In this document: piece after piece, positions 21,846 to 27,738 of the stretch
Layout of the letters: each line of letters opens with the position of its first letter
Numbering within the stretch: the stretch's first letter is position 1
Assembly (NCBI GenBank): GCA_046045965.1
Contig: JBJOKS010000038.1
Span: 1 to 36,977 of the forward strand
Length of the DNA stretch: 36,977 nt
Source of the DNA: Cyanobacteriota bacterium
GTDB lineage: Bacteria; Cyanobacteriota; Cyanobacteriia; Cyanobacteriales; Nostocaceae
Direction: 5' to 3'
Notes under the pieces: model-generated
The model's database searches: none
What the model saw: the letters and a program-made list of their open reading frames with translations, nothing else
What the model was told of the DNA's origin: nothing
Translations under genes and position numbers: made by a program

Positions 21846-22355
21846 ATGCGCGATGCAGTTACAACTTTAATTAAGAATTATGACGTAGCCGGAAAATATT
21901 TTGACCGGAATGCGATTGATAGCCTCAAGTCTTACTTTGAAACTGGTACAGCTAGAGTGCAAGCCGCAGCAGCGATTAATTCTAATGCGGCAGCTATTGT
22001 GAAGCAAGCTGGTTCTAAGCTATTTGAAGAACTACCAGAATTGATTCGTCCTGGTGGTAATGCTTATACAACTCGTCGCTTTGCTGCTTGTTTACGAGAT
22101 ATGGACTATTATCTCCGCTACGCTACCTATGCGCTAGTCGCTGGTAATATGAATGTGTTGGATGAGCGTGTGTTGCAAGGTTTACGGGAAACTTACAATT
22201 CTTTGGGTGTACCTATTAGTCCTACTGTTCGCGGTATCCAAATTATGAAGGATATTGCTAGAGAGCAAGCTGCATCTGCGGGTATTACTAATACTGCGTT
22301 TGTGGATGAGCCTTTTGATTATATGACTCGTGAGTTGAGTGAACAGGATGTTTAA
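21846..22355 (+). CDS. apcF: Allophycocyanin beta-18 subunit
   Basis: MRDAVTTLIKNYD...PGGNAYTTRRFAACLRDMDYYLRY; divergent from glnA; ATG at 21846. Confidence 0.96.
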   Translation: MRDAVTTLIKNYDVAGKYFDRNAIDSLKSYFETGTARVQAAAAINSNAAAIVKQAGSKLFEELPELIRPGGNAYTTRRFAACLRDMDYYLRYATYALVAGNMNVLDERVLQGLRETYNSLGVPISPTVRGIQIMKDIAREQAASAGITNTAFVDEPFDYMTRELSEQDV

Positions 22356-22446
22356 TTAGATGAGTTAGCGAAGCGATTAGAAATATATATCTGCCAAGCT
22401 ACGCTTCTACACAAACAAAAATTGCCTGCGCGGACTCAATGATGAT

Positions 22447-22486
22447 CGCACCTTGGCTTTCTTGACAAGGTGCGGTTACTTTTTTT
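22447..22486 (+). terminator. Probable apcF terminator
   Basis: CGCACCTTG...CAAGGTGCG hairpin followed by a T7 tract after 5 nt. Confidence 0.6.
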
Positions 22487-22843
22487 AATGCCAAAGATGA
22501 GTTAGGCTTTAAGCTTTTTCCCTAGAAAATACTTAAATTTTTGTAAAATATTTGACCAAATAGATAATAATTCTTCAGGTTATTTCCATAGAGAGCAACA
22601 CGATGACGGCTTTTAATTATTGATTAGGATTAATAAGATTTTGGTGTCAACCGTACAAAAATATCACTACCTTTTAAACATAAATAAATCAAAAATTTAG
22701 TAAAATGATATCATGAAAACGCTGAGGCGCAAACGCCTCAATAGGCTTTCATCCCTGCTATCAAGTACGATTGAATCTCTTCGCCAAGCTACGAGACTCA
22801 ACCTCAAGGGTTTTCAGCCTACTTCCTTATAAATAGCATAACT

Positions 22844-23059
22844 GTCAGAAACCCCACGGCTAAAGCCGGGGGCTTGAAAAAGCCTATCTGACCAGCCTAA
22901 GTCTTAATTGACTACGTTTAAGGCAAGAGTTAAAAGACCTACCAGAGAATGCTCCCGCTAGTTCCCTGCTCTAGAACCGAACTGTTAAACATCTGTACAA
23001 GGGTTAAGGAAGTGCAGTTTGGATAGTTACCGGCCTTAAACATTGGCGAAGCTAACATT
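22844..23059 (+). ncRNA. HEARO / IscB omega-RNA scaffold
   Basis: Characteristic blocks TGACCAGCCTAAGTC..GACTACGTT, ACCTAC..GAATGC..GCTAGTTCC.TGCTCT, GTTAAACA..GGGTTAAGG.AGTG and AACATTGGCGAAGC.AACATT, recognised from memory of the family. Confidence 0.8.
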
Positions 23060-23153
23060 TGATATCGCTACCAAAATGGGGAGAATTACAGGCATTAGCT
23101 ACAAATATTGTTCAGCAATTCATAAAAAGGATGGATATAGTTATGCATTTTGA
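23058..23153 (+). pseudogene. iscB: Last 31 codons of IscB
   Basis: FDIATKMGRITGISYKYCSAIHKKDGYSYAF* matches the cyanobacterial IscB C-terminus (...HKxDGYSY). Confidence 0.8.
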
Positions 23154-23234
23154 AGCAATTCTGACGGCGATTAAAATTGCCTGCGCCTTCCCCCCATTTT
23201 TAAAGCCAGGGGCTTCCACGGCGCGAGGTGTTTG

Positions 23235-23729
23235 GTGATTGACCCTCTGTTTTGGCTGGGACTATCCATCCTCTTAGTCGCTGCTAGTCTCACTGCTGTT
23301 TTAGTGGCAGCTATACCCGCTTTACAGGAGTTAGCACGCGCCTCGCGTAGTGCCGAAAAGTTTTTTGATATTCTTTCAAGGGAGTTACCGCCCACTCTCA
23401 AAGCCATCCGTAATACCAGTTTAGAAATAACAGACTTAACAGATGATGTTAGTGAAGGTGTCAAAAGTGCTGGTCAAGTCGTTAAACAAGTAGATCAAAG
23501 TCTCGATCATGCCAAAAAACAAGCTCAGAATATTCAAGTCAGCACACGCAGTCTCGTAGTTGGTGTGAAAGCTGCCTGGAAAACCTTCACGCGCCAACAA
23601 CCTGCTAGACGAAGCCCTGAACGCTTACCCATGAATGAAAAACCAGAGCTGACCCTGCGAGAACGAGAGCAGAGGAGCAGGGGAGCAGGGGAGCAGAGGA
23701 GCAGGGAGAGAATAACAACTGACAACTGA
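23235..23729 (+). CDS. DUF948-like membrane-anchored protein
   Basis: GTG start giving MIDPLFWLG; N-terminal TM helix and coiled coil; STRR-derived tail. Confidence 0.75.
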   Translation: MIDPLFWLGLSILLVAASLTAVLVAAIPALQELARASRSAEKFFDILSRELPPTLKAIRNTSLEITDLTDDVSEGVKSAGQVVKQVDQSLDHAKKQAQNIQVSTRSLVVGVKAAWKTFTRQQPARRSPERLPMNEKPELTLREREQRSRGAGEQRSRERITTDN

Positions 23730-23835
23730 CATGAGATTAGAGTAAAGTAAAGAAGTGTAAAGAAGTATCACTTTTCTCGTACTCTTTAAAAAGCACTTGT
23801 TCACGTTTGCCGTTAATATTTGTATAAAAAATTCC

Positions 23836-24645
23836 ATGCAGCGTTGTTTTTGGCGACAAATTTTGGTATCCATTGCAGTATTTTTCTTTGCTGGAGCAAT
23901 TTGGGCGGTTCATTCACCATCAGCCCTAGCTTATGAAAATGCTGACTTACTACCTGACACATTTACCCCAGTTGTCGATTTAGCGAAAACTCTCCCCGAC
24001 CCCCAAGAAGAAAACCTGGTCAAAGAGTTAGAACAGTTTGAAACTGATACTGGCTGGAAATTGCGAGTATTAACCCAGTATGACCGCACTCCTGGAAGAG
24101 CAGTAATCAAATATTGGGGTTTGGATGACAAAAGTATTCTCTTGGTTGCAGATGCCCGTGGTGGTAATATTCTCAGTTTTAGTGTGGGTGATGCAGTTTA
24201 TGAACTTTTACCCCGTACATTCTGGATTGAACTACAAACCCGTTTTGGTAACTTGTACTTTGTGCGCGAACAAGGGGAAGACCAAGCTATCCTACAAGCT
24301 TTAGATTCGGTTAAAGGCTGTTTACTCAAAGGTGGTTGTAATGTCGTTCCTGGACTACCAAGGGAACAGTGGATACTCACCGTCATTACCTCAGCTATTG
24401 GTGGCATTATTTGTGGCTTTGCTGCTCAACCCCGCAATGATAAACAAGTTTTTGCTTGGCAATGGGCGTTAATTTTTTCACCTTTGTGGGGAATTTTGTT
24501 TATTGCCTTCGGTATTGCTCCAGTCATAACCCGTACTAGCGATTGGGTTCCTCTGGTTCGCAATATTTCCGCTTTTTTGATTGGGGTTTTGGTAGCTTAT
24601 CTATCTCCAGGTTTCAGTCGTCCTCCTTCTAGTAGCGAATCTTAG
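23836..24645 (+). CDS. TPM-domain membrane protein
   Basis: Signal peptide, TPVVDLA...FETDTGWKLRVLTQ and C-terminal TM helices. Confidence 0.85.
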   Translation: MQRCFWRQILVSIAVFFFAGAIWAVHSPSALAYENADLLPDTFTPVVDLAKTLPDPQEENLVKELEQFETDTGWKLRVLTQYDRTPGRAVIKYWGLDDKSILLVADARGGNILSFSVGDAVYELLPRTFWIELQTRFGNLYFVREQGEDQAILQALDSVKGCLLKGGCNVVPGLPREQWILTVITSAIGGIICGFAAQPRNDKQVFAWQWALIFSPLWGILFIAFGIAPVITRTSDWVPLVRNISAFLIGVLVAYLSPGFSRPPSSSES

Positions 24646-24646
24646 C

Positions 24647-24745
24647 TAATTGGTAATTGGTAATTGGTAATTGGTAATTGGTAATTGGTAATTGGTTAAA
24701 ATATTTTCCCCATCCCAATCCCCAATCCCCAATCCCCTATTCCCT
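24647..24745. repeat. STRR (TAATTGG)x7 followed by an oppositely oriented (CCCCAAT)-type tract
   Basis: Seen directly. Confidence 0.85.
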
Positions 24746-24793
24746 ACCTTGTGATGATAAGCTGAAAGCTGATATGTGAGAAGCTTAACAGCA

Positions 24794-25423
24794 ATGGAAT
24801 GGCACGTAACTGATGCTCAAAGCTTGGCAATCATTGATAGTGAAATTGGCGATCATGTCTTTTCACCAGCAGAGTATGAGATAGTCCGGCGAATAATATA
24901 CGCCACGTCTGATTTTGAGTACAAGTCTTTGATTCGCTTTTCGGAACACGCTTTACAAGCTGGAGCAGCAGCACTGGCAGCACGTACTACTATTGTGGTA
25001 GATGTGCCAATGGTACAAGTTGGTATTGCTTACGATATTCAAAACACCTTTGCCAACCCGGTGTATTGCAGTATGGAAGCTCTGACCCGTCCCCAAAAAG
25101 AAAGAACTCGCTCTGCTTGGGGGATTGAAACTCTGGCCAAGCGGTATCCAGAGGGAATTTTTGTGGTCGGTCAAGCCCAAACTGCTTTAACTGCACTTGT
25201 TGATTTAATTGAAGCGGAAGAAATTCGACCAGCTTTGATTATTGCTACACCAGCAGGATTTATCAATGTGGATACTGATAAAGAACGGTTGCAAGAATCT
25301 TTAGTACCTTATATTACTATTGACAGTCGTAAAGGTAATGCGGTGGTAGCATCTGCTATTGTTGATGGTTTGGTTGATTTAGCTTGGCAAGCCTATGGTC
25401 AAGAGAGAAGTGGGGTAAGTTAA
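24794..25423 (+). CDS. Precorrin-8X methylmutase (CobH/CbiC) family protein with an atypical active site
   Basis: SLAIIDSE, RRIIYATSDF, IVVDVPMV, IRPALII and RKG motifs align with CobH. Confidence 0.85.
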   Translation: MEWHVTDAQSLAIIDSEIGDHVFSPAEYEIVRRIIYATSDFEYKSLIRFSEHALQAGAAALAARTTIVVDVPMVQVGIAYDIQNTFANPVYCSMEALTRPQKERTRSAWGIETLAKRYPEGIFVVGQAQTALTALVDLIEAEEIRPALIIATPAGFINVDTDKERLQESLVPYITIDSRKGNAVVASAIVDGLVDLAWQAYGQERSGVS

Positions 25424-25522
25424 ATTTTTAGGGTGTGGGGTGTGGGGCTAGTAACTGAAAAAATTCACAATTTTGAACTACTGTTCTATTCTCACTGTCA
25501 CCTGTCACCTGTCAACTGTCAC

Positions 25523-26227
25523 CTAATAATCATCATCGTCTCTGTATTTTTGTGGTTCTGGACGACGGCGACGTGGTTTTTCCTGTTGGTTTTCTCGTAA
25601 GCGAAGACTGACTTCATTAAAGAAATCCTCTCGCACGTAGGGATAGTCACTTACCCAGAGGTTACGACTGGGGATGTAGATGTTGCTAAATTCTTCGATG
25701 CTGCTTAAATCTGGGCTATTTGACATGACTATCATTTCTGCGATTTGACCACGAGCGATCGCTTTATGAGCAGGACGTAATGGGGCATCAAATTCTACAG
25801 TAAACCCTGTGTTATCACCCAGTTCTAAGTTAATCCGTTTTTCGCGGTTTTCGATAATTACCAACTCGCCTTTATTGTTGACAGTTTCTTGTTTACCTGT
25901 CAATTTATCTGTAATCCACCAATCTAGCACTCGTCCACGGAAAAAGCCGCTGTACTTGTAACGGCGGCATTTTGCATTGCGAATACTGGCTTGAAATACG
26001 GGATACCACAACCAAAAAAAAGCACCAAATACCCCGAAGGTGAAAATTAACCCAAAATCCAGCTTCAAAAAGATTCTGACCAGAAAAATTACAACTACAG
26101 TCACTACAGAAATTAATAGCCGCTGTAAAAAACTGTTAAATTTTCCCCAGTAGTATTTATACTGTGAACCACTGGCAATAAGAGGTATGATTTGTTCAAA
26201 TTTTTGGCGAGTCAGTGGAACAAGCAT
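25523..26227 (-). CDS. Conserved hypothetical membrane protein (2 TM)
   Basis: 234-aa ORF with two hydrophobic segments, in line with dapB. Confidence 0.8.
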   Translation of the reverse strand: MLVPLTRQKFEQIIPLIASGSQYKYYWGKFNSFLQRLLISVVTVVVIFLVRIFLKLDFGLIFTFGVFGAFFWLWYPVFQASIRNAKCRRYKYSGFFRGRVLDWWITDKLTGKQETVNNKGELVIIENREKRINLELGDNTGFTVEFDAPLRPAHKAIARGQIAEMIVMSNSPDLSSIEEFSNIYIPSRNLWVSDYPYVREDFFNEVSLRLRENQQEKPRRRRPEPQKYRDDDDY

Positions 26228-26362
26228 ATTTTAGAATTTAGAATTTAGAATTTAGAATTTGGATAGGAAAAATCGCAAATCGAAAATTTATCACATAAAT
26301 ATCAATGGGCAGGGTAATCAGGATATCAATATAATTCTGAAAACAGAGTACACATTTATTTT

Positions 26363-26410
<48 letters not shown>

Positions 26411-26413
26411 TTC

Positions 26414-27250
26414 TTACAGTATTTTTTCTAATCCATATACTAATGACTTTAGCTGGTTGACTTTGCGAATTGCTAGTAGGACTCCGGGCATATAGCAGGA
26501 GCGATCGCTGGTATCATGGCGTAAGGTGTAAATCTGCCCTGCTGCGCCGAAAATGACTTCCTGATGGGCAATTAATCCTGGTAAGCGTACACTATGAATT
26601 CTAATCCCTTCGTCGGCTAAAGAGCCTCTTGCTCCTGCTATTTTTTCTGTTTCTTCAACTTGAGGGACGTTAAAAGTTTTACCTAATTCTGCTAATAATT
26701 GCGCTGTTTGAATGGCTGTACCGCTTGGTGCGTCGGCTTTTTGGTTGTGATGTAGTTCGATAATTTCTACATGATCAAAATATTGGGATGCGGTGACTGC
26801 GGCTTGTTGTAGCAGTACCATACCAATGGAAAAATTAGGAATTAGTAAACAACCTGTACTCGCTTTTTCAGCAAAATCTGTCAAATTTTGAATTTGTTCA
26901 AGACTTAAACCCGTGGTTCCCACTACTGGACGAATACCATAGGCGATCGCACTCCGCACATTATCATAAACCGCATCAGGATGGGTAAAATCTACCATTA
27001 CCCCTGGTTGTAGCTGTCTTTCCCCTGCTACATAACCTAACATTGGCTCTAGTTGATTGGTAATTGGAACTTCCAAAGGTTCGCTTAAACCTGCCAGTTC
27101 TCCTGCGTCCTTGTCTTGATGTTCCGGTGAGGTATCGAGAGCGCCCATTAAAATCATATCCGGTGCTTGGGCTACCGCTTTGATGACTTCACGTCCCATT
27201 TTACCAGCTGCACCATTGACAATTACGGGGATGGTAGATTGATTGGTCAT
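26414..27250 (-). CDS. dapB: 4-hydroxy-tetrahydrodipicolinate reductase
   Basis: GAAGKMG, VDFT, GTTG, PNFSIG and [15 protein letters not shown] motifs; ATG at 27250. Confidence 0.97.
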
Positions 27251-27387
27251 ATTTCCTGCAAATGCGTTTTTAGTCATTTTACTTATATCTTGCACCAGTC
27301 CTGACAAATGGGTGAGATTGGATGATCAGGAACCAATATCAAAAGTCTGATGGAGAGGACTGGGTAACATGAGGTTTTAAGCCTTTT

Positions 27388-27738
27388 TTATGATAAATTC
27401 TGGGTTTGAGAATCTGTGTTTTCGGGATCAGATGGGTTTGTCCGTTTTATGGCTTGACTTTCGCGTTGAGTAGCATCTACTCCAGCAGCGATCGCTTCTC
27501 GTAGTCTCTCTAAGGTATCATCCCAGTTTCGCAATGCGCTGGCAGAAAGCCGATCTGCTTGAATTTGCACACTTGTTGATATATCTTCTGCCAACTCTGG
27601 TAAGGCATCGGCTGATTTTTTCAAAAGTTTACGTGTTTCCCTCCCTGTGCGGGGAGCAGCGAGCAAGCTGGTTAAAGCACCAATAGTAGCTCCCAGCATC
27701 AAGCCGCCAATAAATATTCCAGAACGATTATTAGACAT
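27388..27738 (-). CDS. YtxH-domain protein
   Basis: FIGGLMLGATIG...LLAAPRTGRETR signature. Confidence 0.88.
   Translation of the reverse strand: MSNNRSGIFIGGLMLGATIGALTSLLAAPRTGRETRKLLKKSADALPELAEDISTSVQIQADRLSASALRNWDDTLERLREAIAAGVDATQRESQAIKRTNPSDPENTDSQTQNLS

Follow-up and report, generated by a model that had tools for sequence, protein, structure and literature searches.

The locus described here raises the question of whether a 391-bp element that holds an IscB omega-RNA and no protein gene is a working RNA-guided parasite or the stranded remainder of a longer transposon. The window (the whole stretch of 36,977 nucleotides that was analyzed) is cyanobacterial DNA, in which a phycobiliprotein gene (21846 to 22355) is followed by a DUF948-like gene and a TPM-domain gene, and the insertion point lies exactly before the GTG start codon of the DUF948-like gene. 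The first-pass annotation had proposed an active minimal parasite. Our preferred explanation, to which we give a probability of about 0.7, is that an IscB transposon inserted between N and GTGA at the DUF948 start codon, lost ~1.2 kb, and is now stranded and inert. The features needed first are the following, with positions being those of the window.

22844 to 23234, + strand: internally deleted ISC (IscB-type IS200/IS605) element, 391 bp.
22844 to 23061, + strand: HEARO/IscB omega-RNA scaffold (Rfam RF02033, model positions 1 to 211, 143.9 bits).
22852 to 22872, + strand: left subterminal hairpin, intact, within the omega-RNA (upper stem, 4/4 Watson-Crick pairs; -7.1 kcal/mol as DNA).
23058 to 23153, + strand: last 31 iscB codons and stop (30/31 residues identical to the C terminus of the full-length relative L095).
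23192 to 23212, + strand: right subterminal hairpin, degenerate, presumed TnpA site adjoining the target (upper stem, 1/4 pairs; -1.6 kcal/mol).
23235 to 23729, + strand: DUF948-like host gene, frame intact (Pfam PF06103, E 2.7e-8, 34.3 bits).

The borders of the element were set by the empty sites of relatives and by the flanks of the family. Both ends are retained, and both arms match the ~1.6-kb iscB elements of relatives (L066 to L068) at 85% to 88%, the exception being the left arm against L068 (81%). HEARO is the IscB omega-RNA (PMC9755519 and PMC13565253, in the portions available; PMC10734277, likewise in part, gives context). The HEARO match, which the annotation had proposed to seek with the HEARO model, covers the full model and is the sole Rfam match in the 37-kb window (E 2.9e-30; cut-off, 83 bits). 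The window copy resembles its class in this full-length match above the gathering score, in a score within the range of 20 loci of relatives (138.5 to 159.9 bits), and in a 5' end that is also the element end. It differs in that the open reading frame is cut to 31 codons and the hairpin and ribosome-binding site after the scaffold are gone. The scaffold is 92.5% identical to that of L087, and among 148 conserved positions four have changes private to this copy (range, 0 to 13; rank 12 of 34); judged from its sequence, the scaffold is undecayed. The earlier description of a 391-bp length, an iscB tail fused to a HEARO-like RNA, and two retained subterminal motifs, the right one partly degenerate, thus agrees with these results; the element itself was borne out, whereas the annotated start at 22820 takes in 24 nt of host flank.

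Compared with 16 full-length relatives, the element is missing 1208 to 1276 bp (~1.2 kb), or about 396 codons, which reduces the downstream HNH/RuvC (IscB) open reading frame to its last 31 codons and removes the ribosome-binding hairpin that follows the scaffold in full elements. The left side of the deletion junction reads CATT, as had been noted. However, the suggested CATT microhomology was not supported, the overlap with the iscB side being TT alone in 25/25 full-length relatives (the codon before TT is AGT in 21, AGC in 3, and AAT in 1). We infer that a full element inserted first and that ~1.2 kb, including nearly all of iscB, was then deleted in place by illegitimate recombination at the TT overlap. 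The scaffold and tail are without excess decay, which fits a recent deletion but would also fit selection.

Could the deletion instead predate arrival, the element belonging to a rare lineage of mobile mini-elements whose helpers were lost later or were never resident? Short HEARO elements without open reading frames are mobile in the family, and searches for a full-length allele of the site gave none. However, a second copy of the junction was absent from all sets searched: the junction word occurred exactly only in this genome among 389 family genomes, and metagenome_contigs held no junction copies. A search allowing two mismatches gave matches in 97 of the 389 genomes, and the 10 loci that were checked were unrelated sequence with only a 19- to 22-nt word in common. 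In addition, both multi-copy mini families found in relatives (see below) have dedicated modules and not an iscB tail, and we regard arrival in the deleted state as highly improbable. No conspecific empty or full-length allele was present in metagenome_contigs, where near-identical records may be missing. One-off deleted or truncated HEARO elements with other breakpoints were seen in relatives (L080:1617-1805, - strand, and L139).

The insertion site can be read with some precision, and two further features belong to it.

22824 to 22843, + strand: predicted 20-nt guide, host 5' flank (17/20 bases shared with the empty site in three genomes of the same genus).
23235 to 23238, + strand: target tetranucleotide GTGA, predicted TAM and DUF948 start codon (from empty sites and family flanks).

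As the annotation had expected, relatives carry the empty allele. All 29 orthologous DUF948 loci (29/29) lacked the element, and in the 21 whose junction was readable by pattern the host flank was continuous with the start codon. The 17/20 identity concerns the bases upstream of the empty site, and the original target DNA is clear only for 22829 to 22843 (~15 nt) of the guide, the distal bases overlapping a neighboring IS605 end. The claim that such elements insert at RTGA likewise held, this motif lying 3' of 57 of 70 distinct right ends of the family (39 GTGA and 18 ATGA). Since the family 3' flank is RTGA, we consider the guide and TAM to have been read correctly in the annotation, which took the guide from the 5' flank and GTGA as the TAM; both roles are predictions drawn by analogy with published IscB work. 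In the available part of one such study (10.1101/2023.03.14.532601), GstIscB cleaves the native donor joint and has a TAM that corresponds to the flank of the element, and in the part of PMC11278801 available the TAM of AwaIscB is ATGA. Excision of the present element would leave a product that the guide still matches. HEARO and RTGA were reportedly linked by Weinberg in 2009. Targeting of start codons as a family strategy was ruled out: a frame of 100 codons opens at only 3 of 38 flanks, compared with 306 of 2501 (12%) in the background.

The parasite proposed at first would have an IscB from elsewhere load the RNA and cut the empty allele at the GTGA TAM, recombination restoring the element and a TnpA in trans mobilizing it. 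The intact scaffold and the correct geometry of guide and TAM speak for this, as do the cleavage of a native donor joint by GstIscB (in the available part of 10.1101/2023.03.14.532601), RNA contigs that join guide and scaffold, and the multiplication of HEARO elements without open reading frames in relatives. However, the helpers were not found. The genome assembly (G000) comprises 5.29 Mb in 107 contigs and is 92.2% complete, and it has one HEARO copy. It yielded no RRXRR domain, the hallmark used here for IscB, in a search that was positive in 35 of the 61 genomes making up the relatives set and in none of 14 controls. A profile of 25 family IscBs run against all six frames gave the window tail and five matches that BLAST placed on the HNH region only. 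No intact IscB that could act in trans, as the annotation had supposed, was therefore found by either search in the 92.2% complete assembly; a divergent IscB could lie in the missing part of the genome.

The transposase fared no better. Y1 transposase matches occurred at three loci, one of them an IS200-like tnpA split over two frames and followed by an end of a second, TTAT-associated family (G000:C11:23411-23762; L002 and L004). The two longer Y1 proteins resemble what we take to be REP-associated transposases. A TnpA cognate to the ends of the present element was not found in the 92.2% complete assembly, and the search for full iscB and tnpA copies that the annotation had suggested thus returned neither. 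Eleven TnpB-type matches were present. No other ends of the family were detected in the genome, profiles of 59 left and 25 right ends matching this locus only, and the short form was not seen at further sites. Beside RTGA, the guide has no match of at least 10 nt elsewhere in the genome and two matches of 8 nt. In DNA run X1, the possible source, one contig spans 22263 to 23696 with no difference at a depth of 77.8, and related HEARO and tail contigs among those listed have depths of 9.8 and 4.5; because of this disparity, near-identical unassembled copies are unlikely.

The right hairpin is damaged as well. Its upper stem forms one of four pairs, versus three or four in 36 of 39 relatives compared by the same pattern, the other three of which look misregistered by the pattern. 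Its folding energy of -1.6 kcal/mol compares with a mean of -3.9 among the 39, 4 of which are equally weak or weaker. Single-strand folding (z = -1.96) is of little weight. Palindromic inserts of ~20 to 25 nt recur in the 3' part of HEARO and in the right end of family members (L066, L069, L072, L073, and L090), with the end register shifted.

Population data were examined at contig level in eight runs, of which X2 had no contig at 99% identity or more and X8 had no usable contig. Contigs from another four studies (X3, X4, X5, and X6) span the deletion junction, contigs of X7 cover the tail and the right junction, and every conspecific contig seen carries the element. A joint skipping the element, that is, the excised allele, was not present among the contigs listed from the eight runs; contigs drop rare variants, and excision may occur rarely. 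Runs with shares of 0.62 to 0.76 were considered as empty alleles and ruled out, the element being present wherever there was coverage. One X4 contig has two substitutions and two insertions in the HEARO stem (22885 to 22910) that match another family variant, which may reflect a strain difference, gene conversion, or a chimeric contig.

Taken against the single copy with its damaged right hairpin, its unique junction, the missing IscB and cognate TnpA, and the lack of an excised allele among the contigs listed, an active parasite guided in trans appears quite improbable, and the corresponding claim of the first-pass annotation was not upheld. In the stranded-element explanation that we prefer, the copy would not excise for want of a transposase or a sound right hairpin; no target would therefore arise, and no retention by cutting and copying would be needed. 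Its RNA is probably still able to guide a cognate IscB, should one arrive.

The surroundings of the element have been rearranged, and a remnant of another transposon lies beside it.

22692 to 22829, - strand: left-end remnant of a second, TnpB-type IS605 family, following TTAT (10 related stretches in the genome).

This remnant is 14 nt from the HEARO element, and left ends of the TTAT family are carried by 3 of 10 TnpB loci in the genome. Relative to same-genus genomes, the block from 22830 to 27390 is inverted, with TTAT at both breakpoints, hinting at a TnpA-linked rearrangement. A ytxH-like gene (PF12732) ends ~12 nt before the DUF948 start in relatives, and here it is inverted (27388 to 27738, - strand), away from its DUF948 partner. 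The PF06103 score of the latter (34.3 bits) is just below the cut-off of 37.2, and the gene is also conserved with same-genus orthologues. A purine-rich short tandem repeat occupies its 3' end (23660 to 23730), where the C termini of same-genus orthologues differ.

RNA libraries indicate how the region might be transcribed.

22734 to 23658, strand not assigned: region that one contig spans in each of two RNA libraries (X3, 22734 to 23984; X6, 22736 to 23658).

These contigs extend across the guide, scaffold, and tail and reach the DUF948 gene. Farther upstream, RNA contigs end at 22432 to 22435, and 22469 to 22669 has no RNA cover, the DNA contigs (X1) continuing through it. The data weakly suggest a read-through transcript or leader over the element, being contig-level and strandless, and a contig is not a transcript. 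The starts of the RNA contigs fall in a hairpin and may be reverse-transcription stops. A promoter scan found four sites versus 1.9 ± 1.4 in shuffled sequences and was uninformative. The element is probably transcribed only within the leader of the host gene.

It might accordingly be asked whether the remnant has been kept as the 5' leader of DUF948 after the rearrangement split off ytxH. The sequence GAGG (23225 to 23228), which is Shine-Dalgarno-like, lies six bases before the GTG and comes from the right end of the element. The displacement of ytxH from its position directly upstream, the RNA contigs that span the element from a start ~500 nt before the GTG, the intact DUF948 frame, and the presence of the element in every conspecific contig seen are all in keeping with such a role. 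On the other hand, right ends of this family generally carry GAGG or GAAG, the family shows no preference for start codons (the 3/38 and 306/2501 given above), the inability to excise accounts for fixation, and selection beyond the family average was not seen. We hold a domesticated leader to be unlikely.

With regard to known systems, the nearest full transposon is ISC1-1_MA of Microcystis, an ISC transposon with a target of the type in which insertion falls between N and ATGA (Kapitonov et al., PMC4810608, available in part). With this class, as described there, the window element has in common a terminus reading 5'-GTCA, a precise position upstream of RTGA without target duplication, and the lack of tnpA. 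Of the two subterminal hairpins of the class, it has the left one intact and the right one damaged, and it differs further in having no IscB and a single copy. Omega-RNAs that need a nuclease in trans have been described in PATE-like IS200/IS605 elements without open reading frames (Meers et al., 10.1101/2023.03.14.532601, in the part available), and stand-alone omega-RNAs go back to a report of Altae-Tran et al. from 2021, as summarized in PMC11610941. The concept is thus not new. In those cases, as here, there is no protein gene, both ends are present, and nuclease and transposase would be needed in trans. In the Geobacillus PATE-like case, as given in the same part of 10.1101/2023.03.14.532601, the helpers are in the same genome, whereas no helpers of the window element turned up and it is not evidently mobile. 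The locus would be a clean example of the death of an OMEGA element, in which guide, target, and predicted TAM (GTGA) can be read from the genome and the host gene has kept its frame despite the insertion at its start codon.

More weight attaches to the comparison than to the locus itself: omega-RNA elements without open reading frames are frequent and multi-copy in related cyanobacteria. Two recurrent multi-copy HEARO families of this kind, which we name type B and type C in this analysis, have conserved noncoding modules in place of iscB. Neither module has an Rfam match, and no published description was found in the literature searched, outside of which lay Altae-Tran 2021, Weinberg 2009, and their supplements. 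Both module patterns gave 0 matches in the genome carrying the window, and the window element belongs to neither family.

Type B was found in 26 of 389 genomes and 16 of 68 genera, in up to 15 copies (examples in alignment A2: L069:774-868, L104:1717-1811, and L138:524-618), with 0 matches for a reversed-pattern control; all 39 titled records matched in genome_contigs were cyanobacterial. Where both ends could be read, its length was mostly 367 to 398 bp. A HEARO-profile match lies directly upstream of the module at 53 of 55 loci, and the flanks differ between copies. RRXRR was present in 24 of the 26 type B genomes, versus 22 of 36 same-family genomes, kin not being independent; the mobile type B thus co-occurs with IscB, unlike the window copy, which is a further point against a parasite guided in trans.

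The type B module (~85 nt) is covarying and pseudoknotted. Among 51 distinct copies (4 of the 55 were dropped, two cut by contig ends and two duplicates), 97.9% of cells were paired, and two-sided changes occurred in 12 of 21 pairs, among them 3 of the 7 that form the pseudoknot helix. None of 500 shuffles reached this, and slid controls were 41% to 62% paired; since the structure was drawn by eye from the same sequences, these controls overstate the case. Compared by eye, the module resembled none of the ribozyme and riboswitch layouts considered.

Types B and C share with the window copy the left end, the HEARO, and a similar size (about 367 to 398 bp in type B), and for many of their copies the right-end family and the RTGA flank as well. 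They differ in being multi-copy with noncoding modules, with type B co-occurring with IscB, whereas in the window copy a raw iscB tail has survived. Tentatively, the window copy might represent the raw first step toward the protein-free, multi-copy omega-RNA transposons of sister genomes, in which a selected structured RNA domain has taken the place of iscB. The B and C modules would then be RNA cargo of an undescribed class that stabilizes or processes the guide or tunes a borrowed IscB, making these elements hyperparasites of OMEGA elements rather than debris. If the modules influence IscB or the maturation of omega-RNA, the role of stand-alone omega-RNAs would become directly testable, and the modules may offer stabilizing parts for IscB guides.

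Type C was found in 38 of 389 genomes and 14 of 68 genera, in up to 17 copies (L097, L115, L124, L131, L147, L151, and L264 to L283; viral, L288, L290, L291, and L294). Its module of ~100 nt is conserved and multibranch, the pairs having been inspected by eye. A HEARO-profile match is adjacent at 14 of 20 type C loci and in 4 of 10 viral contigs with the type C pattern. Right ends of at least two kinds accompany type C, and two short words are common to types B and C.
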